NCBI GenBank assembly: GCA_037137395.1
Contig: JBAXKK010000037.1
Coordinates: 1-23,307 of the forward strand
Direction: 5' to 3'
DNA from: Elusimicrobiota bacterium
GTDB taxonomy: Bacteria > Elusimicrobiota > Elusimicrobia > Elusimicrobiales > UBA9959
Length of the DNA stretch: 23,307 nucleotides
The translations under genes and the position numbers were made by a program. Position 1 is the stretch's first letter; each line of letters opens with the position of its first letter. This document shows, piece after piece, positions 11,912 to 23,307 of this stretch. The notes under the pieces were generated by a model that saw only the letters and a list, made by a program, of their open reading frames with translations, did not search any database and was not told the DNA's origin.

Positions 11912-11951
11912 TAAACAAACCGGCTCCGGCATTTTGAGCGCCGGAGCCGGT
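11912..11951 (-). terminator. Intrinsic terminator of the cold-shock gene
   Basis: 12-bp stem ACCGGCTCCGGC / GCCGGAGCCGGT followed by a T-rich tract on the minus strand. Confidence 0.75.
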
Positions 11952-11966
11952 AAACTTAAAAGCAGT

Positions 11967-12188
11967 TTATGCTTTTTTGGGGGCCTGAACCTTTTTCACA
12001 TTAACGGCCTTGGGTCCTTTGTCAGTGTTTTCGGTGTCAAACTCCACTTCCTGATTTTCAGCGAGGGTTTTAAAGCCTTCGCCCAGGATTGAAGAATGAT
12101 GGACAAAAAGATCCTTTGAACCATCTTCAGGAATAATGAAACCGAAACCTTTCTTATCGTTAAACCACTTCACTTTACCTTTTGCCAT
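11967..12188 (-). CDS. Cold-shock protein (CspA family)
   Basis: GKVKWFN, KGFGFI (RNP1) and LFVHHS (RNP2); GAGG SD. Confidence 0.96.
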
Positions 12189-12337
12189 TTGTTAATTTAC
12201 CTCTCTTTAATTACTATTTTAGTGCAGCGCCTCAAAAATATTATATATCTTTTTTCCGCCACAGCAACAGTTAAGGAATAAGCCTCAAGATTGTCCTCAC
12301 GCTTATGGCCGATGGCTGATGGCATACGGCATTGTAT

Positions 12338-15083: not shown

Positions 15084-15159
15084 TGGTGGACGTGACAGGG
15101 ATCGAACCTGCGACCTCCTGCATGCCATGCAGGCGCTCTCCCAACTGAGCTACACGCCC
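15084..15159 (-). tRNA. tRNA-Ala(GGC)
   Basis: GGGCGTGTAGCTCAGTTGGGAGAGCGCCTGCATGGCATGCAGGAGGTCGCAGGTTCGATCCCTGTCACGTCCACCA: 76-nt cloverleaf, anticodon GGC, G3-U70 Ala determinant, encoded CCA. Confidence 0.97.
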
Positions 15160-15261: not shown

Positions 15262-15406
15262 GGGTTCGCAGGGCCTGCCAGGGGCCTGGAACGTGGAACC
15301 AGTGTCGCCCACACCGTGGGCGCACTTCCCGTCCTCAGCCTCGTCGCTACGCAAGCCTCGGCTTCCGGAGGGTTCCACTAACCCAGATCCCCTGTCACCC
15401 GCTCCA
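15262..15406 (+). repeat. Structured repeat element copy 1, ending in a tRNA-Gly-like 3' end
   Basis: Homologous to 22866-23067 (inverted). Nested stems show compensatory changes between copies. Ends in GATCCCCTGTCACCCGCTCCA. Confidence 0.8.
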
Positions 15407-15576
15407 CTGTTATAATGCGCAGCATGACATTTATCTAGCTGGGGAGTTGCCTGCCCACTCAGTAATAAAAAAACCACACCCATGCCCCTTCCACCTTCTG
15501 TCAATAGGTGTTTTTTTAATACATTTTTTTTCAGGCGACAATCTTCGGGGATAATTGTTAAAATACCTTTACCACT

Positions 15577-16752
15577 ATGGAGCCAAAAAAACTGCTGATC
15601 TTTCATCTGGACGACGGCAAAGAGCTGCGCGGCGGACAGCGCCAGCTCATGTACCTGGTCAAAGAGCTCAACAAGTTGGGCCATTCCAACTATGTAGTTT
15701 GCCGCAAAGGCTCGCCTCTTGAGCGCACCTCTCAGCGAAAAGGCTTTAAGACCATCGCGCTTCCGTATTTTTTTGAATGGGATCCTGTATCGGCCTTCCT
15801 GCTGAACAAAACCATACGCGATATCTCCGCCGCCTGCCCCCATTGCGAACCGCCCATACTCCACGCGCACACGTCTCATACCGCGGCCGTCTCCTACCTC
15901 GCATCCTTTACCCTGTCCTGCGTGCGCATCGCCCACCGCCGCGTGGACTTCGTACCTGGGCGCGGCCTGTCGTCTAAATTTAAATATGAAAAAGCGCACC
16001 GGGTCATCGCCATTTCCCGCCCGGTAAAAGATATCATGCTCTCCCTGGGCCTTTCTGAAAACAAGATTTCAGTGGTAAACAGCACCGTGGATCTGGAAGA
16101 AACTCCCTGGGAAAACGGCGGCTTTGAACGATACCGCGCCGAAGCCAGACGGGCCATAGCCGCAAAGTTCGGCATTCCCGCCGAAGCGCCCTGGATAGGA
16201 TCTCTGATAGCCTTGGTCCCGCATAAAGATCCGGAAAACTTCGCCAGAGCGGCCGCGCTTGTGATAGAAAAACATCCGGAGGTCAGATTCCTGATAGCCG
16301 GGACCGGCGAACTAGCCGCCGATATGCGCCGCTTGGTCAAGATCCTGAATATCGCGGACAGGTTCCATTTGCTGGGTTATTACGACAACCCCTACGAACT
16401 GCTTTCCGCGCTTGATATTTTTGTACTGCCCTCCTGCGAGGAAGGTATGGGCAGCGTCCTAATAGAGGCTATGAACTCACGGCTCCCCATAGTCGCCACC
16501 AGGGCCGGGGGCATCACCGATGTCATAGAAGACCGGGCCAACGGCCTAATTGTGGACATAAAAGACCCGGCCGGCCTGGCCGCGGCGCAGATCGAACTGC
16601 TTGAGGACTCCCCTTTAAAACATCGCTTAGCCGACGAAGGCCATCGCCGCAGACTGGATTTTTCTTCGCCCAGGATGGCGGAACTGACCCTTAAAATATA
16701 CGAGCAGGAACTCGACCGGCTCAAGGCCCCGGCAAACGAAACGGCGAACTAG
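15577..16752 (+). CDS. Glycosyltransferase family 4 (GT-B), LPS biosynthesis
   Basis: LRGGQRQ, LHAHTSH, HRRVDF, HK and the EX7E motif EGMGSVLIE. Confidence 0.9.
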   Translation: MEPKKLLIFHLDDGKELRGGQRQLMYLVKELNKLGHSNYVVCRKGSPLERTSQRKGFKTIALPYFFEWDPVSAFLLNKTIRDISAACPHCEPPILHAHTSHTAAVSYLASFTLSCVRIAHRRVDFVPGRGLSSKFKYEKAHRVIAISRPVKDIMLSLGLSENKISVVNSTVDLEETPWENGGFERYRAEARRAIAAKFGIPAEAPWIGSLIALVPHKDPENFARAAALVIEKHPEVRFLIAGTGELAADMRRLVKILNIADRFHLLGYYDNPYELLSALDIFVLPSCEEGMGSVLIEAMNSRLPIVATRAGGITDVIEDRANGLIVDIKDPAGLAAAQIELLEDSPLKHRLADEGHRRRLDFSSPRMAELTLKIYEQELDRLKAPANETAN

Positions 16753-16777
16753 CTAATAAAGCGGGAAGCGCGTATTT

Positions 16778-17833
16778 ATGAAAATTCTTAATATCATTGA
16801 TATTCCCTGGCACAGCGCCCTGGCCGCCTACGCTTTTGACCAGAGCTTAGCCCTGTCCGACCGGGGCCACGGGATATATTTCGCAGCGCCGGACTCCAGC
16901 GCCTCCGCATCCTTCGCTCTGGAGAAAAAATTTCCCCTGACTATTATCCCCCACCGCAAAAGCTACATGATCCTGGGCGCCGTCCTGAAGCTGAAAAAGC
17001 TTATCGAGAGCGAAGGCATCGATATCGTCAACGCCCATACCGGCAAGGCGCAGACAATGACCTGGCTGGTTTCTCTGATAAGCGCCAGGCCGTTCGCCAT
17101 AATAAGAACTAAAGCGGACGCCAAGCTCCCCAAAAACGGCTTCGCCCTCGGAAAAACCGCCGTTGTCATAGCCGGCTCCAAAGTGATAAAAGAAATGTAC
17201 GCCGCGGCCGGCGTAGATCCTGCGAAAACTGAAATTATTTACCAGGGCGTAGCTCCGCAACCGGAAGCGCCCGCGGCTCACGATTCCCCCTTAAAGGTCG
17301 GAATTCTCGGCAGACTGGATCCAGTAAAAGGCCACGCCTGCTTTATCGAAGCCGCCGCGTTGGTCCTGGGTAAATTCCCGGCGGTGGAATTTTTGATCGC
17401 CGGCAGGGAAGAAGATATCAAGTACGCGTCGCTCCAAACCCGGGCCAAAGAACTGGGGATAGCTGGCAGCGTGAAATACCTGGGCCATGTATCCGACAGC
17501 GCGTCTTTTACCCGGTCCTGCGATGTCGGAGTTATCGCCTCTTTATCCAGCGAAGCGGTTTCGCGCGCGGCGCTTGAATGGCTGGCGGCCGGAAAGCCCC
17601 TGGTGGCCACCTCCGTCGGCAGCCTGCCGGAGTTTGTCCCCCCCCAATGGCTGGTCCCGCCAAAAGATCCGGACGCGCTAGCCGGCGCTCTCCAAACCCT
17701 TCTGGAGTCCACTGAGAAAAGGCTCGCGGCTGGCGCCGCAAACAGGGTCAGAGCGCTCAGAGATTTCAGTCCGGAGCGTTTCGCGGAACAAACAGCGTCT
17801 GTATTCGAGGCCGCGATGAAAAGGACACCATAA
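16778..17833 (+). CDS. Glycosyltransferase family 4 (GT-B)
   Basis: VNAHTG, GRLDPVKG and the EX7E motif EAVSRAALE. Confidence 0.9.
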   Translation: MKILNIIDIPWHSALAAYAFDQSLALSDRGHGIYFAAPDSSASASFALEKKFPLTIIPHRKSYMILGAVLKLKKLIESEGIDIVNAHTGKAQTMTWLVSLISARPFAIIRTKADAKLPKNGFALGKTAVVIAGSKVIKEMYAAAGVDPAKTEIIYQGVAPQPEAPAAHDSPLKVGILGRLDPVKGHACFIEAAALVLGKFPAVEFLIAGREEDIKYASLQTRAKELGIAGSVKYLGHVSDSASFTRSCDVGVIASLSSEAVSRAALEWLAAGKPLVATSVGSLPEFVPPQWLVPPKDPDALAGALQTLLESTEKRLAAGAANRVRALRDFSPERFAEQTASVFEAAMKRTP

Positions 17834-19071
17834 TGACACCCGAGCAATATCTTGAAAAAACAAAGCAATTCGCCATAGCGCTCTTCGCCTTAAGCGTTCT
17901 ATTTTCAGTGACCGCCGTGGAGGGGGCCATGCTGCTTCTTGCCGGCGTGGTAATATTGGAGCGCTACCGCCGCGGCCAATTGAAGCTTCTGCTTAAAGAG
18001 ACCGCCGCCCAGCCCCTCTTCCGCCCCTGGATGCTGTACCTGGCCGTCGGCCTTCTTACGGCCGCTTTCGCGCTGAACAAAGGCAAGGCTTTCGCCTACG
18101 CCCCCTCGGACATCATAAAGTATCTGTGTTTTATCGCTCTGATGGCGGGGCTCACCAAGGACAAACTCGCCGCCATGTCTAATTTCTATATACTCGCGGC
18201 GATGTCCGCGGCGGCTATCGGAATAGCGCAGTCGGCCTGGGCATTATCCTCAGGGCTTGATCTCAGGGCTCACGCTTTCGCGCACCCGGTAAGATTCGGA
18301 GAGATGATGGTAATCGCTTTATGGCTGCCACTGGCGAGATTCCTGACTAAAAAACAGTTCGGGGGGCGCAAGCTCAATATTGTCGCGGGACTTATAATTT
18401 TCGCCGCGCTCGTATTAAGCCAGACAAGAGGCGCCTACCTCGGCTTTTGCGCTTCCTTCGCGGTCATATTCCTGCTGGACAAACAGTCGCGCATAAGATT
18501 CAGTATTGTTTTAGTAACTTTAACATTTCCCGCAATAATAGCCCTCGCGATTATTCCCGCGGTCCGGCATAAATTAATTGCAATACCCGAAGGGATCGCT
18601 AAAGCGGCATCTTCCCTAACGCAGCCTTCTTCCGCGATCACAAATCACACTTCCGACGTAGCGATAAATATCCGGATCGAGCTTTGGAAAACGGGACTCA
18701 GGATCTTCAGAGATCACCCGTTCACTGGCGTGGGGCCGGCGAATGTAAAAAAAGTATTTCCCGACTACTATAAAGGTCCGCTGGGAGACCAGAACACCTG
18801 GGGAAGCCTGCATAATCTCTACCTGCATCACCTGGTTGAGCGCGGGATAATCGGACTGGCGGCCCTTTTAACGCTCTTCGGCGGAATGTTCGCGCTTGCA
18901 TGGAAAAACTTCAGGACAGAACGCAACGAATGGACACTCTGGGCGCTGGCCGTATTGCCGGCTTATTTCGTTGTAAATCTGACGGAAATATCGTTCCAGC
19001 ACATACACACATCTTTTGCCGTATTTCTGGCGCTGGCAGCAAGCTGTGCCTCAATAAAGTCAGAAAGCTAG
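17833..19071 (+). CDS. O-antigen ligase family protein (WaaL/Wzy_C)
   Basis: Multi-TM protein with SQTRGAY, RIELWK, HPFTGVG and LHNLYL..LVERGIIG motifs; adjacent to glycosyltransferases. Confidence 0.88.
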   Translation: MTPEQYLEKTKQFAIALFALSVLFSVTAVEGAMLLLAGVVILERYRRGQLKLLLKETAAQPLFRPWMLYLAVGLLTAAFALNKGKAFAYAPSDIIKYLCFIALMAGLTKDKLAAMSNFYILAAMSAAAIGIAQSAWALSSGLDLRAHAFAHPVRFGEMMVIALWLPLARFLTKKQFGGRKLNIVAGLIIFAALVLSQTRGAYLGFCASFAVIFLLDKQSRIRFSIVLVTLTFPAIIALAIIPAVRHKLIAIPEGIAKAASSLTQPSSAITNHTSDVAINIRIELWKTGLRIFRDHPFTGVGPANVKKVFPDYYKGPLGDQNTWGSLHNLYLHHLVERGIIGLAALLTLFGGMFALAWKNFRTERNEWTLWALAVLPAYFVVNLTEISFQHIHTSFAVFLALAASCASIKSES

Positions 19072-19183
19072 GGGCAAGGCAATCTAGATGCAAAGCAATT
19101 TAGATGTAAGGCGAGCTAGCGACTTAGAAGCACGGCGATTCAGCAGTTTAGCTAAACTGCTTTGCGTCTAAATGGCTAAATCG

Positions 19184-19930
19184 CTATTTACTTTCTGATA
19201 TTTGCCGGTATTTCAGGTAGGCTAAAACTTCATTGAACATGTCTATCACGGCGGCGGCAAACCCCTCCGGGCCGTCCAAAAAACCCAACTTCAAAAAATA
19301 ACTGACCGCAAATTTTCTGAAGGCGCGCCAAGGTCCCAGCGCGGCCGGGCGGTCGGCCTTTATAAATTTCTCAGCCTTAAGCGAAGCGTAGAAATCAAGT
19401 TTCTTAACCACATCGTCATAATCCCTGTAGGGGAAATGGGCAAAGGGGTTCGTCAGCGAAGCTTCTTTACCAAGGACCGTAAGTCTTTCATGCACGTCCC
19501 GGCAAGGGAACGACGCCGTACCCTTCCTGAAAAGACGCAGCTGGAAATCCGGATATTTCCCCCCGTGCCGCAGCCAGCGCCCGAAATAATGATTTTTTCT
19601 GGGAATAGAGTAAGCGTCAGCCGAATGGCCTTTCGCCAGAAGATCCTTTATCTCTTCCCGAAGTTCCATGGGAATAGTCTCGTCGGGATCGATGTAAATG
19701 ATCCATTCGCCGGAACATTGATCTATCGCGAATTGTTTATTGATATTTAAATTTGACGCGTTGGGTCTTGAAAATATCTTAACAGGATACCGCGCGGCTA
19801 TCTCGGCGGTTTTATCCGTGCTTTCGCAATCCACCAGGATTATCTCGCTGACCCAGCTCAGACTTTCAAGACAGGCCCCGATGTTCTTCTCTTCATTATG
19901 CGCGATGATGGAAGCTGAAATGCTCGTCAT
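19184..19930 (-). CDS. Glycosyltransferase family 2 (WaaE/KdtX-like LPS core glucosyltransferase)
   Basis: IIAHNEE, VDCESTDKT, IDPDE, RLFR, VHE and GFLDG motifs. True start is probably ATG 19930 (MTSISA); the longer ORF-track extension reads through a repeat element. Confidence 0.88.
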   Translation of the reverse strand: MTSISASIIAHNEEKNIGACLESLSWVSEIILVDCESTDKTAEIAARYPVKIFSRPNASNLNINKQFAIDQCSGEWIIYIDPDETIPMELREEIKDLLAKGHSADAYSIPRKNHYFGRWLRHGGKYPDFQLRLFRKGTASFPCRDVHERLTVLGKEASLTNPFAHFPYRDYDDVVKKLDFYASLKAEKFIKADRPAALGPWRAFRKFAVSYFLKLGFLDGPEGFAAAVIDMFNEVLAYLKYRQISESK

Positions 19931-19974
19931 AACATATATTTTAGCAATAAAACGCCAAAGGCGATAGCGGCCAC

Positions 19975-20227
19975 TCAAAAGCTCAAGTAAGTCGGAGGTC
20001 TCGTCGAGACATTTTTCATCGTTCTGTGGAGCCTTTAATGCCTCCCCCGGCGGCCTGCCCCACCGTGAAACTGAGGGGGCTTGTCCTCTGTAGCCGGGTG
20101 AAGGAGGAAAGCCGCTGCCAGTTCCATTTGGTTTGTCTCCCCGGCGAAAGCCGGGGTCCATTGTAGGCCATATTCATGGATTCCGGCTTTCGCCGGAAAG
20201 ACGACCTGGTCTTATGCGAGCTTTTGA
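19975..20227. mobile_element. MITE-like element copy B (longer) with internal REP-type hairpin pair
   Basis: Terminal inverted repeat TCAAAAGCTC / GAGCTTTTGA. Palindromes GTCTCCCCGGCGAAAGCCGGGGTCCA (20135-20160) and TGGATTCCGGCTTTCGCCGGAAAGAC (20177-20202). Homologous to 7024-7199. Confidence 0.7.
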
Positions 20228-20365
20228 TAGCGGCCAATACCCCTAAATTGCCTTACATCTAAACCGCTTTACTTCCACGCTAGGCCTTTAGGCCTATCCC
20301 CATATAGGCCTTTGGGCCCTTAATTCCGCATGCCTTTCTATTATAATAGCTTCAAGGAGAATAAC

Positions 20366-21490
20366 ATGAAACTGCTTAAACTCTCTCTGCTGACAATTTT
20401 CCTGACCCTTAATTCCGGCGCAGCCCGCTGCGAAGAAAACACGGTGCTTTTCAAGGACGCCGCTTTCCCTATCATCATAAATGTTTCAGCTGACACGGCC
20501 ATAGGGGCGGTGGTATACGAAACGCAGTTCAGTGAGGCGCCTGCCAAAGATTACGACACCGTGCTTATAAACGGAGAAATGCCCGACCCGCGCATGCGGC
20601 TTCAGATCAGGGTAAAGAACGGGGCGGTGGTAAAAATTTTTGACAGGTCCGTAATGCACCGGTTCCCCAACGGCCGCTTCTGGGCCAAATACAGTATCGG
20701 CCCTGTTACCCGCGAGCCCCTCAAGGTCACCCTCATAAATGATGGCGCGACATCAGCCCACACCTTTACTATCTACGGCGTGGAAGCTTTCCGCGCAACC
20801 ACAATGAGGGAAAATCCGGAAGGCGGGACAGTGGAGGATTATAAACCCGACCCCGGGTTTTACCTGCCAAGAGAAGTGCCTTTTACTATTTTCAGACGCG
20901 AGATATGGAAAGCCGCGCCTCCTAAAGCGGCATATGCGCCGCACACCCCAAAAATGTTCACGCTTCATCATACCCAGGGGAATTCTCCTAAAAATTTCGA
21001 AGAGGCCGCGCAGGAAATGCAGTTTATACAGGACTATCACCAGAACGGCCGCGGCTGGATAGACATCGCCTACCATTTCCTCATTTCGCCGCAGGGTGAC
21101 ATTTTTGAAGGCCGGCCTATAAACGTTGTCGGAGCGCATACTCTGAACTGGAACACGGCGAATGTGGGCGTCTCCATTATGGGAAACTACCACCCACCGG
21201 TCAATCAGATCCCGACCAAAGAAACCCTTAATTCCTTTGTCGAGATGGGCAAATACCTTAAATCCACTTATAGCATCAATGTAAGCAGCTTTTACGCCCA
21301 CAGGGATATCGGATCAACCGATTGTCCCGGGAACATTCTCTACGCCCGTGTACCCGAACTTCGGGACCTTATCTTCAAAGCGGAAACTCCGGTCCCGGTT
21401 CCCCCAACTCCCATAACGCCCCCTTCCCCCCCGGCCACCCCTGCCGATTCGCCCTCTTTAAGCCAACTTTTAGAATACACGGATAAATAA
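20366..21490 (+). CDS. Secreted PGRP-like N-acetylmuramoyl-L-alanine amidase (Amidase_2) with an unknown N-terminal domain and Pro-rich tail
   Basis: LHHT, GWIDIAYHF, GAHT, AHRD and TDCPG zinc-amidase motifs; signal peptide. AAGGAG SD before ATG 20366 and TATAAT at 20342. Confidence 0.88.
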   Translation: MKLLKLSLLTIFLTLNSGAARCEENTVLFKDAAFPIIINVSADTAIGAVVYETQFSEAPAKDYDTVLINGEMPDPRMRLQIRVKNGAVVKIFDRSVMHRFPNGRFWAKYSIGPVTREPLKVTLINDGATSAHTFTIYGVEAFRATTMRENPEGGTVEDYKPDPGFYLPREVPFTIFRREIWKAAPPKAAYAPHTPKMFTLHHTQGNSPKNFEEAAQEMQFIQDYHQNGRGWIDIAYHFLISPQGDIFEGRPINVVGAHTLNWNTANVGVSIMGNYHPPVNQIPTKETLNSFVEMGKYLKSTYSINVSSFYAHRDIGSTDCPGNILYARVPELRDLIFKAETPVPVPPTPITPPSPPATPADSPSLSQLLEYTDK

Positions 21491-21491
21491 A

Positions 21492-21524
21492 AAACACCAC
21501 GCAGGTTAAAACTGCGTGGTGTTT
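21492..21524. terminator. Bidirectional intrinsic terminator between the amidase and lysA
   Basis: 13-bp stem AAACACCACGCAG / CTGCGTGGTGTTT flanked by A and T tracts. Confidence 0.8.
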
Positions 21525-21550
21525 ATATTTTTTATATCTAAAAGTAGTTC

Positions 21551-22777
21551 CTAATCCTCCAAGCCCCTTTCCCGCTTTATCAGATCCTGATAGGTCTCCC
21601 GCTCTCTTACAAGGCGCCAGGTCTTTTCCCCCGTGATCAAAACCTCAGCGGCGCGCGGCCGTGAATTGTACTGTGAACTCATGGAGAACCCGTAGGCCCC
21701 GGCTGAAAGTATCATTAGAATATCGCCACGGGAAGGCGTTGTCAGCGTAACCCCTTGCGCCAAAAAATCTCCGCTTTCACATACCGGCCCGGTTATATCA
21801 AACCTTACGGCTTTACCCGGCCTCTTCACAAGAGGGCGCACCGGGTGTCTGGCGCCGTAGAAAGCCGGGCGGATAAGATCGTTCATGGCTCCGTCGGTTA
21901 TCACATAATTGCGGGGCCCGCTTTTTTTTCTGTAAAGAGTTTTTACGGCCAGCGCGCCCGCCGACGCCACAAGCGAACGCCCTGGTTCAAGTATTAGCTT
22001 CAAACCCAGCTTTTTAACTACCGGACCGGCGATTTTGGCCAGAACGCCCGGCGCAAGCATTTCAAAACCTTCTTTAACACCCCAGCCTCCGCCCATATCA
22101 AGATACTTAAGCTTTACGCCTTCCCTCTCAAGCTGATGGATGAATTTAGCGGAAGCCGCCAGAGCTTTAGCGTAAGGCTCCGGTGAATCTATCTGCGAAC
22201 CGAGGTGAAAATGGAGAGCGACAGCATCCAGATGGCACGATTTTTTTATAAAAGAGTAGAGCTGGCCGGCTTCTTTAAAAGCGACGCCGAACTTGCTGCC
22301 GAGCTTTCCGGTAGTGATAAATTTGTGGGTGTGGGGATCTATGTCGGGATTTATTCTGACGGAAACCGGCGCTTTTATTTTAAGTCTGGCGGCTACGCGT
22401 TCAAGGGTTTCAAGCTCTTCAAATGATTCCACATTTATGAATAATATTCCGGAACGGAGAGCGTAAGATATTTCATCCTCGGTCTTACCTACTCCTGAGA
22501 ATATTATCTTGCGCGGGTTAAAGCCGGCTTTGAGCGCCCTGTAAAGCTCCCCCCCGCTGACTACATCCGCGCCGGCCCCGTTCCGGGCCAGCAGCCCGGC
22601 CACCGCGCCATTGGAGTTAGCCTTCATCGCGTAACAAAACAAGGGAGCCAGATTGGAAAAAGCCTTTTTATAGGCGTCCAGATTCGCGATTATTTTTTCC
22701 CGGGAGTAAATGTACACCGGAGTCCCGGTCTGCTTAACTATGCGCTCTATCAGCGCGGCAGAAAAAGTTTCTTTCAT
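21551..22777 (-). CDS. lysA: Diaminopimelate decarboxylase
   Basis: YAMKAN (PLP lysine), VSGGEL, SKFG, HFHLGSQ, EPGR, GPVCESGD and GAYGFSMSSQYNSRPR motifs. Confidence 0.96.
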   Translation of the reverse strand: MKETFSAALIERIVKQTGTPVYIYSREKIIANLDAYKKAFSNLAPLFCYAMKANSNGAVAGLLARNGAGADVVSGGELYRALKAGFNPRKIIFSGVGKTEDEISYALRSGILFINVESFEELETLERVAARLKIKAPVSVRINPDIDPHTHKFITTGKLGSKFGVAFKEAGQLYSFIKKSCHLDAVALHFHLGSQIDSPEPYAKALAASAKFIHQLEREGVKLKYLDMGGGWGVKEGFEMLAPGVLAKIAGPVVKKLGLKLILEPGRSLVASAGALAVKTLYRKKSGPRNYVITDGAMNDLIRPAFYGARHPVRPLVKRPGKAVRFDITGPVCESGDFLAQGVTLTTPSRGDILMILSAGAYGFSMSSQYNSRPRAAEVLITGEKTWRLVRERETYQDLIKRERGLED

Positions 22778-22865
22778 AATTTTAAAGCCGCCGGGCCATG
22801 AAGCCCAGGCGGCTTTATGCCATCCTTTAAATTACTATGCTTTCAGTTTTCATAGAGATGAAAAT

Positions 22866-23067
22866 TGGAGCGGGTGACGGGGGATCTGGGTTAGCGAAAC
22901 CCTCCGGAATGGAGTCCGCCGAAGGCGGACGACAGTTCTTCGCCTGAGGCTTGCGTAGCGACGAAGGCGGGTGGAGCCCTGCGACACTGGGCTCGCACGG
23001 GAGTAGCGGCCACGGTGTGGCCGACTACGGTTTCGCGTTCCAGGCCCCCGGCAGGCCCCGCAAACCC
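22866..23067 (-). repeat. Structured repeat element copy 2 (two extra hairpins), ending in a tRNA-Gly-like 3' end
   Basis: Reverse complement aligns with 15262-15406 and ends in GATCCCCCGTCACCCGCTCCA. Confidence 0.8.
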
Positions 23068-23071
23068 CATC

Positions 23072-23307
23072 ATTCCCCCCCAACTACATCAAAGAGCTTC
23101 TAAAAAAAACTGCGCGGGGGGGGACCTGTTTGAACTGTTGAATTGTGTCCGTCCGCCTTGGGGCGGACTACCACCCGAACCCGGGTGTTCGATTCCCCCC
23201 CAACTGCATCAAAGAGCTTCTAAAAAAAACTGCGCGGGGGGGGACCTGTTCAAACTGTTGAATTGTGTCCGTCCGCCTTGGGGCGGACTACCACCCGAAC
23301 CCGGGTG
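23072..23307. repeat. 120-bp tandem repeat, at least 2 units, truncated by the window end
   Basis: 23072-23187 and 23192-23307 are identical except at three positions (CTAC/CTGC; TTTGAAC/TTCAAAC). Each unit contains the hairpin GTCCGCC-ttgg-GGCGGAC. Confidence 0.92.

Follow-up and report, generated by a model that had tools for sequence, protein, structure and literature searches.

ERIC and Correia repeats carry a TA target duplication, the rtT repeats of E. coli tyrT are duplicates of a tRNA 3' end, and integron attC sites, one for each cassette gene, pair RYYYAAC with GTTRRRY at the base of their stem. REP, BIME and REPIN sequences are associated with RAYT (TnpA-REP) transposases of the Y1 HUH type (PMC8266576, PMC3116915, PMC3733652), and in the system described in PMC8266576 the REP is cut strand-specifically at CT as a folded single strand of DNA. 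Mini-hairpins of the GCGNAGC type, described as far more stable in their DNA form than as RNA, occur in the single-strand origins and promoters of phage G4, ssiA and N4 (PMC13037366). We compared with these systems an element of an uncultured bacterium that is probably a small, non-autonomous, REPIN/ERIC-like mobile DNA repeat of one family of Elusimicrobia, recognised as a folded single strand.

The window, which is the whole stretch of DNA analysed, comprises 23,307 nt of contig JBAXKK010000037.1 from an Elusimicrobiota bacterium (GCA_037137395.1). A sequence-only reading had described two homologous copies of a structured element in it, and its coordinates, as well as every helix change that it listed between the copies, are present in the sequence; instead of two copies, however, this genome has 43 loci according to an iterated HMM. 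Copy 1 (15263..15406) is a full-length unit whose folding strand is the minus strand, on which it scores 109.7 bits with the covariance model, and it runs from 5'-TGGAG through a basal stem and a three-way-junction core to GAACC-3'. On that strand, the basal stem is formed by a 5' arm (15385..15406) and a 3' arm that has a 3-nt bulge and finishes in GAACC (15263..15287); the complement of the 5' arm, at 15386-15406 on the plus strand, is a tRNA-Gly-like tail. The arms enclose a conserved 97-nt core (15288..15384, minus strand) that consists of a closing stem with an asymmetric loop, the junction and two hairpins with tandem G·A pairs. One of the hairpins holds, following a TT bulge, the mini-hairpin GCGTAGC (15346..15352, minus strand), which is of the GCGNAGC type as defined in PMC13037366, and the second (15301..15326, minus strand) has a CAC-GGT-GTG top and a bulged A.

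Copy 2 (22866..23066, folding strand plus) is also a full-length unit, and it carries two inserted modules. Its 5' arm (22866..22887, plus strand), whose complement is again the tRNA-Gly-like tail, and its 3' arm (23042..23066, plus strand) flank a core that spans 22888..23041 on the plus strand with the inserts included and has its mini-hairpin at 22953-22959. The first module (22909..22935, plus strand) reads TGGA, stem, GAA loop, stem, GACA and is shared with the copy on C43, while the second (22971..22994, plus strand), of the form GTGGA...GACAC, recurs in other copies. Since the module motif has 212 matches in the genome and 141 with a reversed control, only the 25 matches inside elements were used.

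The family was found in 48 of 80 genomes of the same taxonomic family, with up to 48 strict matches per genome, and the reversed-pattern control gave 0 matches in all 80. The copies are intergenic, number tens per genome and stand in either orientation. They are enriched directly 3' of genes, and back-to-back pairs of two element subtypes occur. The 150 neighbouring ORFs that were scanned belong mostly to housekeeping genes. Copying has been recent, as a neighbour copy at least 95% identical exists for 6 of 40 copies, and relatives have gained or lost copies: in four of five congeners the orthologous interval has no HMM match. The aspS spacer is occupied in 19 of 30 genomes and the nifU spacer in 11 of 30, and arm-only remnants remain at empty sites. 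No bias towards a replication strand was detected (12 vs 15, p=0.70), and the viral contigs gave 0 matches to the element. The repeat is gene-less and dispersed, and the earlier suggestion of a small non-autonomous element is supported. Neither the two window copies nor six copies from relatives matched an Rfam family at E<=1, so the check that the sequence-only reading had proposed points to no known RNA family. No published description of this repeat family was found in the open-licence literature, and related repeats may be listed in the supplements to PMC11893778 or PMC3733652.

The proposal that a multi-branched structure is under selection is borne out by the alignment of 85 copies, in which both partners have changed in 28 of 42 pairs and 95.4% of the cells are paired, compared to 36-53% in slid controls. 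Against dinucleotide shuffles, the fold of copy 1 has a z of -2.9 (1 of 200 shuffles as good) and that of copy 2 a z of -4.3 (0 of 200). The strand on which the structure had been described is the poorer folder: folded as RNA, 38 of 40 copies are more stable on the reverse strand, and folded as DNA, 39 of 40 are. This folding strand carries near-invariant tandem G·A pairs, which, like the junction bases and the TT bulge, are retained in 76-85 of the 85 copies. Within the core, an AAC lies opposite a TAAC, both unpaired. The mini-hairpin GCGN(N)AGC, that is, GCGNAGC or GCGNNAGC, is found in 58 of the 85.

If the selected molecule were instead the RNA of the well-folding strand, the family would have spread by gene conversion, either as a structured RNA in many copies or as a cis-element that was domesticated, for instance to stabilise mRNA 3' ends or to bind a protein, which we regard as unlikely. 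The tandem G·A pairs speak for it, as do G·U wobbles (103 G·T cells vs 46 A·C cells) and the GUAA loop present in 45 of 85 copies; these traits suit RNA too and form a counterpoint to a DNA model. Also in its favour are the position of many of the relatives' cores, 14-60 bp from a stop codon, and the long-lasting, high occupancy of certain spacers. However, the loop has three bases (GNA/ANA), differing from the RNA GNRA form, in 31 of 85 copies, the interior of copy 1 has no terminator-like site, and near-identical copies stand at unrelated sites, as does the 99% identical counterpart of copy 1 on contig C71. The orientation to genes is also free, even within a single site: among 86 copies of relatives, those between co-directional genes have the folding strand sense in 18 cases and antisense in 23, and at aspS the numbers are 14 sense and 5 antisense. 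Long persistence at orthologous sites and the enrichment 3' of genes could also reflect a benefit to the host.

The unit measures about 140 nt, with the three-way-junction core set within a basal stem of 15-25 bp. Among 55 full-length copies, the 5' end TGGAG is conserved in 50-54 per position, with GGAG at the 5' foot of the folding strand in 51-54 per position, and the 3' end reads GAAC followed by C (43) or T (11), which makes the unit end in CC or CT in 54 of the 55. By analogy, such an end would fit the guide rule given in PMC8266576 for a GGAG guide. No duplication of 2-5 bp reaches 15% of the 55 copies, and the putative insertion ends are placed by this conservation. The conserved part is the inner core; the arms vary, and in many copies of genus g4 they are unrelated. 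It should be considered that template switching can yield complementary arms without selection.

Swapping or flipping of the core inside arms that remain in place is seen at the orthologous aspS site. In 14 of 20 aspS rows the arms are closer to those of another copy at aspS, and in 8 of 20 the cores are; in L279 and L300, the arms are 93% identical, and the cores are 68% identical and oppositely oriented. Four aspS cores are 100% identical to cores from other loci. Flipping within fixed arms, like the arm-only remnants at empty sites, is also what one would expect if no dedicated enzyme were involved and the element were a self-templating palindrome, propagated through template switching and short-homology recombination by the host replication and repair proteins. 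The tRNA inserts described below, with their inverted and direct copies of target sequence, fit this scheme, as does the fact that a partner gene was not found in the loci checked. Template switching should, on the other hand, erase mismatches, which the copies keep at the G·A pairs, the TT bulge and the junction bases, and the ends are fixed in 50-55 of the 55 full-length copies. We give this scheme a small chance, below that of a selected RNA.

The likeness of the tail to tRNA-Gly holds in part. With one gap, the tail agrees with the host tRNA-Gly at 18 of 20 bases in copy 1 and 17 of 20 in copy 2, 26 of the 29 copies that retain the end match tRNA-Gly best, and the terminal TGG/CCA is conserved. 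The match exceeds that of shuffles in a test that was post hoc and whose shuffling loses the C-runs, and the contiguous identity extends over 9 bases only. The acceptor strand is not the ACCCGC previously cited: the host tRNA-Gly has GCCCGC, in the GCC and CCC isoacceptors here and in the TCC isoacceptor of five of five relatives. ARAGORN called no tRNA on either copy, and neither copy has a tRNA 5' half, as the sequence-only reading had stated.

From these observations, that reading had proposed either a tRNA-mimicking ncRNA or an element that targets tRNA 3' ends. The first would be a CCA-ended RNA of the strand that it described, possibly reverse-transcribed from the CCA end; the 17-18 matching bases and the conserved terminus are in its favour, and it is nevertheless unsupported, because the CCA strand folds poorly (in 38 of 40 copies it is the worse of the two) and the tail is base-paired within the element. 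The CCA strand would moreover bear T·C tandems, not G·A, many g4 copies have unrelated arms, and a reverse transcriptase (PF00078) occurs in one of five genomes, namely this one, where the element is absent from its locus, and in none of four element-rich relatives. We judge this explanation very improbable. Given the tRNA-like tail and the tRNA-tailored inserts at tRNA-Gly genes, the tail could alternatively be the duplicate of an attachment site, belonging to an element for which tRNA-Gly 3' ends are the present target. Such targeting is unsupported because, of the 43 tRNA genes, only one lies within 400 bp of a copy, which is on the 5' side of the tRNA, and this reading is the least credible explanation that we weighed: one of 89 copies in relatives is close to a tRNA, the tRNA 5' half is missing at both window copies, and the core is another one in the inserts at tRNA-Gly(GCC) and tRNA-Leu(CAG), with no model match on L415 or L416. 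No sign was seen that tRNA genes are general hot spots for the element. In the window, tRNA-Ala(GGC) (15084..15159, minus strand) has its 5' end 103 bp from copy 1, which is therefore not at a tRNA 3' end.

The window does contain an rtT-like repeat, and it is a separate feature that adjoins copy 2: a 120-bp tandem (23072..23307, minus strand) in which the units close with 15 nt copied from the 3' end of tRNA-Leu(GAG), at 23231-23245 and 23111-23125. Copy 2 breaks the start of its third unit, and the tRNA-Leu(GAG) gene itself sits on contig C106, whose end overlaps that of the window. The rtT-type pattern of tRNA 3'-end duplicates is seen at 10 of 43 tRNA loci in this genome. At tRNA-Gly genes, tRNA-tailored inserts with an arm layout like that of the element are present in this genome and in three of five relatives, and they hold inverted and direct copies of the target sequence. 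Because the fold is on the strand opposite to the tRNA-like tail, the tail most likely derives from a tRNA gene, part of which was captured and serves as a stem arm, and is not the sign of a tRNA mimic. Capture from tRNA-Gly is plausible since the match beats shuffles and inserts of the same layout exist in the genome; the likeness is probably a record that the element originated at a tRNA-Gly end.

Several enzymes were considered as partners of the element. For RAYT/Y1 transposases, 42 Y1_Tnp loci were examined, from about 170 matches listed for 60 genomes, and none carries a copy; the four Y1_Tnp loci of this genome have other repeats at their flanks. For a small stand-alone GIY-YIG gene (UPF0213), 24 of 62 loci (18/32 plus 6/30) have the element as a flanking repeat, as did three of four genes of genus g4 at first look. 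This candidate was weakened, as the gene is unflanked in this genome and its genus, none of 16 further loci outside g4 has the repeat, and outside genera g4 and g12 the count is 0 of 17. Its flanking rate is about that of the control spacers (aspS 19/30, nifU 11/30), which run high because they were picked where one genome had a copy. The best solved relatives of the protein are the UPF0213 structures 1ywl and 1zg2, which points to a subfamily other than cd10448. Tyrosine recombinases were discarded, with a copy in two of 21 loci, each about 1 kb away, and so was an rve-transposase IS as the autonomous parent: the element lies inside its right end in two of 15 loci, with only its first bases in a third, and it is missing from a 64%-identical relative of the IS, so that it reads as a passenger. 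Among the Y1 loci, neighbouring ORFs, reverse transcriptase, tyrosine recombinases and IS checked, no mobilising enzyme was identified.

Our preferred explanation, a mobile DNA repeat, would have the folded single strand serve as the substrate of a nuclease or recombinase acting in trans, and its closest precedent for movement would be single-strand cutting and joining of the HUH/Y1 kind. Against it count the lack of a mobilising enzyme in the loci checked and the absence of a replication-strand bias. Whole units would give rise to new copies; in resident copies the ends would decay while the arms remain complementary, and the cores may be renewed from other copies by recombination at the conserved core edges. 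With similar confidence, the founding unit seems to have taken its arms from a tRNA-Gly 3' end, as tRNA-tailored inserts do, and then to have spread away from tRNA genes. More speculatively, the tRNA-tailored inserts found in uncultured bacteria and the dispersed repeats with their Y-shaped fold might form one class of gene-less single-stranded DNA elements, in which a core copies its landing target as a stem, can move with captured arms such as the tRNA-Gly end, and is exchanged or inverted as a cassette by a structure-specific nuclease of the host. The only nuclease candidate seen for cassette exchange is the uncharacterised UPF0213 GIY-YIG protein.

With the tRNA-mimic reading removed, what is left is a lineage-specific repeat with a strand-specific branched fold of DNA-stable motifs, and with the unusual, testable trait that cores swap and flip inside site-resident arms. 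If its arm was captured from tRNA-Gly, two kinds of small unexplained elements that are common in uncultured bacteria are linked, and a route is indicated for the birth of new repeat families. The fixed ends and the short length make it a ready substrate to probe small orphan nucleases such as UPF0213.

Compared to the known systems, the element resembles ERIC/IRU and Correia repeats in being an imperfect palindrome of about 120-150 nt that is intergenic, restricted to a family and subject to internal insertions. Unlike them, it lacks a target duplication and has a conserved branched core and exchangeable arms; the missing target-site duplication also separates it from a MITE, the derivative of a TIR transposase element. 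It shares a tRNA 3'-end-like tract with the rtT repeats, but it is dispersed away from tRNA genes, it is not tandem and its tract has diverged from the host tRNA. In contrast to integron attC sites, its AAC and TAAC are unpaired in the core, and its neighbours are housekeeping genes.

With the G4, ssiA and N4 mini-hairpins, as presented in PMC13037366, it has the exact motif in common, here within a chromosomal multi-copy repeat. The flanked GIY-YIG gene and the likely role of strand-specific hairpin DNA as substrate recall the Ssn single-strand nucleases and their NTS/SRM repeats (PMC11893778). According to that account, however, Ssn is the cd10448 clade and the NTS/SRM measures 28 nt, while the flanked protein matches UPF0213 structures, the element has about 140 nt and flanking is absent in the genus of this genome; the SRM consensus hairpin is found in none of the 43 copies and has 53 matches elsewhere in the genome. 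From the REP family, as characterised in the papers cited at the outset, the element differs in its foot, which is GGAG instead of the most frequent GTAG and is present only once, in conserving an inner three-way junction where REPINs conserve both ends and vary the spacer, and in not flanking any of the 42 Y1_Tnp loci examined, in contrast to a REPtron, a RAYT gene flanked by its repeat. It is like REP, BIME and REPIN sequences in being extragenic, mostly directly 3' of genes and in either orientation, with genome-specific subfamilies and paired subtypes, and also in having a long hairpin with compensatory changes, mismatches conserved on one strand, a tetranucleotide at the 5' foot and no target duplication.

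The two homologous copies described in the sequence-only reading, copy 1 at 15263-15406 (folded on the minus strand) and copy 2 at 22866-23066 (folded on the plus strand), are both present in the window together with their compensatory differences; Rfam gives no match over either, and both fold better than their dinucleotide shuffles (z of -2.9 and -4.3). Their homology stands, but not their number, as BLASTN, nhmmer and three HMM rounds found 43 loci of this gene-less repeat in the genome, placed between ORFs according to a crude ORF call; 40 of them reach at least 115 nt, and both ends are retained in 28. Copy 1 is bordered on one side by the 5' end of a tRNA-Ala gene (15084-15159, the sole ARAGORN call in the window, with none on either copy) and on the other by a glycosyltransferase-like ORF, named from sequence inspection. 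Copy 2 lies between a lysA-like PLP-decarboxylase gene, identified by the Pfam domains of its homologue at locus L089, and a 120-bp tandem repeat. Its two extra hairpins represent one small module type, which occurs 25 times within elements, in 20 cases on the folded strand. With respect to the genes around it, the tRNA-Ala gene has the opposite orientation to that in all five congeners, and one relative (G005), like the window, has a nested element on the 5' side of this tRNA. Elsewhere in the window, the region of a cold-shock protein gene (11916-12330) scores 58.9 bits against the Rfam cspA thermoregulator threshold of 78, a score that probably comes from the coding part of the gene.

The strand that folds is the reverse of the one carrying the tRNA-Gly-like, CCA-ended tail; treated as RNA, it is the more stable of the two in 38 of 40 copies, and treated as DNA in 39 of 40. 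Because G-richness alone could favour its stability, the mismatches were examined in an alignment of 85 cores, taken from 102 that are non-redundant and of standard length; the 17 omitted are mostly shorter subtypes. One internal loop of the core shows G·A in 82 cores and A·G in all 85, a second tandem G·A is found in 76, in either of two registers, and the second hairpin has a tandem G·A in place of two Watson-Crick pairs in 33-34; on the opposite strand these would be T·C tandems. The covariation proposed earlier was borne out in these 85 cores, which are kin and whose closing stem was fixed by the search pattern: 28 of 42 pairs changed on both sides (509 cells), a result equalled by none of 500 shuffles. 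In the named structure, 95.4% of cells are paired, compared with 36-53% in slid registers.

A DNA search detected the element in 11 of 24 genomes of the same family and in none of 16 from two other families. A strict pattern occurred in 48 of 80 family genomes, at most 48 times in any one of them, and its reversed control had no matches; a covariance model, scoring at most 24 candidates per genome, found the element in 5 of 7 family genomes and in none of 143 belonging to different families in the phylum. Across all species genomes, a pattern scan matched at least 112 stretches; among the 80 matches listed, 72 are titled Elusimicrobia, seven are titled only as bacteria, and one is a 1.8-kb Armatimonadota contig. 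Viral contigs gave no matches. The element is a real, structured, family-restricted repeat, and we found no description of its family in the openly licensed literature. The genome also contains sister families with the same terminal stem and different cores, a 190-nt family with about 38 copies, and several heptamer-repeat families.

Conservation across 55 full-length copies, 20 of them from this genome, spans TGGAG to GAAC, after which comes C (43) or T (11); the ends show no target duplication. A copy on contig C71 shares 99% identity with copy 1 and has different flanks. At the site orthologous to that of copy 1, four of five congeners have no HMM match, and the remaining one has a nested relative. 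Some copies are enclosed by an outer inverted repeat. This repeat, of about 17 bp (contigs C1, C19, C20, C30, C40, C43 and others), holds either the element or a sister core, an arrangement resembling a MITE with interchangeable cargo. The right end of an rve-transposase IS, whose end pattern we take to be IS1202-like, also contains the element, in this genome (contig C116, 4647-4785), in a relative (G002, locus L032) and at locus L127. The same IS end with the element occurs on a short contig titled Armatimonadota, possibly reflecting a route between lineages or a binning error.

Arms stay at a site while cores change. Of 30 genomes, 19 have the element in the spacer 3' of aspS, in sense orientation in 14 and antisense in 5, and several unfilled spacers have arm-only hairpins or other repeat families. 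Compared with 161 other copies, the arms are closest to another aspS copy in 14 of 20 rows and the cores in only 8 of 20 (19 loci, L306 being counted twice); four of the aspS cores recur unchanged at other loci. Between loci L279 and L300, the arms are 93% identical, and the cores, which point in opposite directions, 68%. In genus g4, many copies have perfectly paired arms of unrelated sequence.

The tail that had been likened to the end of tRNA-Gly is complementary to the 5' arm of the folded strand, and its sequence covaries with that of the 3' arm. The likeness holds at 18/20 positions (copy 1) and 17/20 (copy 2) with one gap, but the tRNA-Gly genes of the host end in TCGCCCGCT, so only 9 contiguous bases are common to both. 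In a post hoc test, shuffles with CCA kept matched any of 42 tRNA ends as well in 0 of 1000 trials for copy 1 and 5 of 1000 for copy 2, and tRNA-Gly is the best-matching tRNA for 26 of the 29 copies in which the end is retained. Another family, distinct from the element, gives independent support: in this genome, 10 of 43 tRNA genes have a duplicate of their 3' end (12-21 nt) behind them, and at 8 of these the gene's T arm is also repeated in inverted form over 9-17 nt (at other tRNAs, median 6-7 and maximum 8-12). Such inserts follow tRNA-Gly in this genome and in three of five relatives; at tRNA-Gly, the duplicate and the element tail share their start, the T-loop GAT. It seems somewhat more likely than not that the founding unit acquired its arms at a tRNA-Gly gene. 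Present targeting of tRNA 3' ends, as had been suggested, is contradicted by the distribution: one of 43 tRNA genes is near a copy, and one of 89 copies in relatives is near a tRNA. The tRNA-tailored inserts (contigs C24, C26, C43, C59, C62, C77, C113 and C130; loci L338, L339 and L341) run from the tRNA gene through its inverted T arm and a 100-200 nt core to the 3'-end duplicate; the element model matched neither of two tRNA-linked inserts tested. By generally known rtT features, the true rtT-like feature of the window is the 120-bp tandem repeat (23072-23307, and 1-138 of contig C106), in which the 3' end of tRNA-Leu(GAG) is duplicated at the end of the units. Contig C106 carries the tRNA-Leu(GAG) gene and overlaps the window end by its first 14 bases, so the two contigs probably join.

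As to the molecule under selection, DNA is favoured, with RNA as the less likely alternative. At the apex of the first hairpin, 15 of 85 copies have GCGNAGC and 43 have GCGNNAGC, with a three-base loop in 31; these are the two forms of the mini-hairpin DNA, and both occur in the element. PMC13037366 puts melting at 76.5 °C for the DNA and at 39 °C for r(GCGAAAGC). The orientation of the copies shows no dependence on transcription: of those in relatives (n=86), 29 are placed between convergent and 7 between divergent genes, and between co-directional genes 18 are sense and 23 antisense, with 9 unresolved, the respective figures for this genome (n=32) being 7, 8, 2, 8 and 7. Replication-strand bias was absent (12 versus 15).

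No partner enzyme is established for the element. None of 42 Y1/RAYT loci had a flanking copy; the four RAYT-like genes of this genome each have their own flanking inverted repeat. Neighbouring ORFs (150 of 152 scanned) are mostly housekeeping, the remainder including two rve, one stand-alone GIY-YIG, one HNH and one YhcG nuclease. The GIY-YIG gene, UPF0213-type and present in 60 of 80 family genomes, has an element within 400 bp at 18 of 32 loci and 6 of 30 further ones, on either side and in either orientation, which recalls the Ssn nucleases (PMC11893778). The flanked loci, mostly at a tRNA-Gln spacer, are all in genera g4 and g12, the gene in this genome has no flanking element, and control spacers are also filled (aspS 19/30, nifU 11/30); the UPF0213 GIY-YIG protein stays a candidate only. 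The locus of tRNA-Gln(TTG), this gene and a nucleotidyltransferase (L221-L250) holds many repeat kinds in g4 and g12. At locus L363 (contig C52, 12491-13186), a 539-codon reverse transcriptase frame is the only PF00078 match among five genomes.

Regarding known systems, the GGAG foot and CC/CT end would fit the TnpA-REP guide rule of PMC8266576, a hint and not a test. Membership in REP/REPIN fails by the lack of a REPtron (a RAYT gene flanked by its repeat) and an inverse conservation pattern, in SRM, the Ssn nuclease repeat, by matches in 0 of 43 copies, and in MITEs by the missing target duplication; the element does not belong with tRNA-targeting elements either. The ERIC, Correia, rtT and attC features used in this comparison are general knowledge. 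By analogy, and with ERIC features as generally known, the element would work like the non-autonomous repeats of the REPIN/ERIC type.
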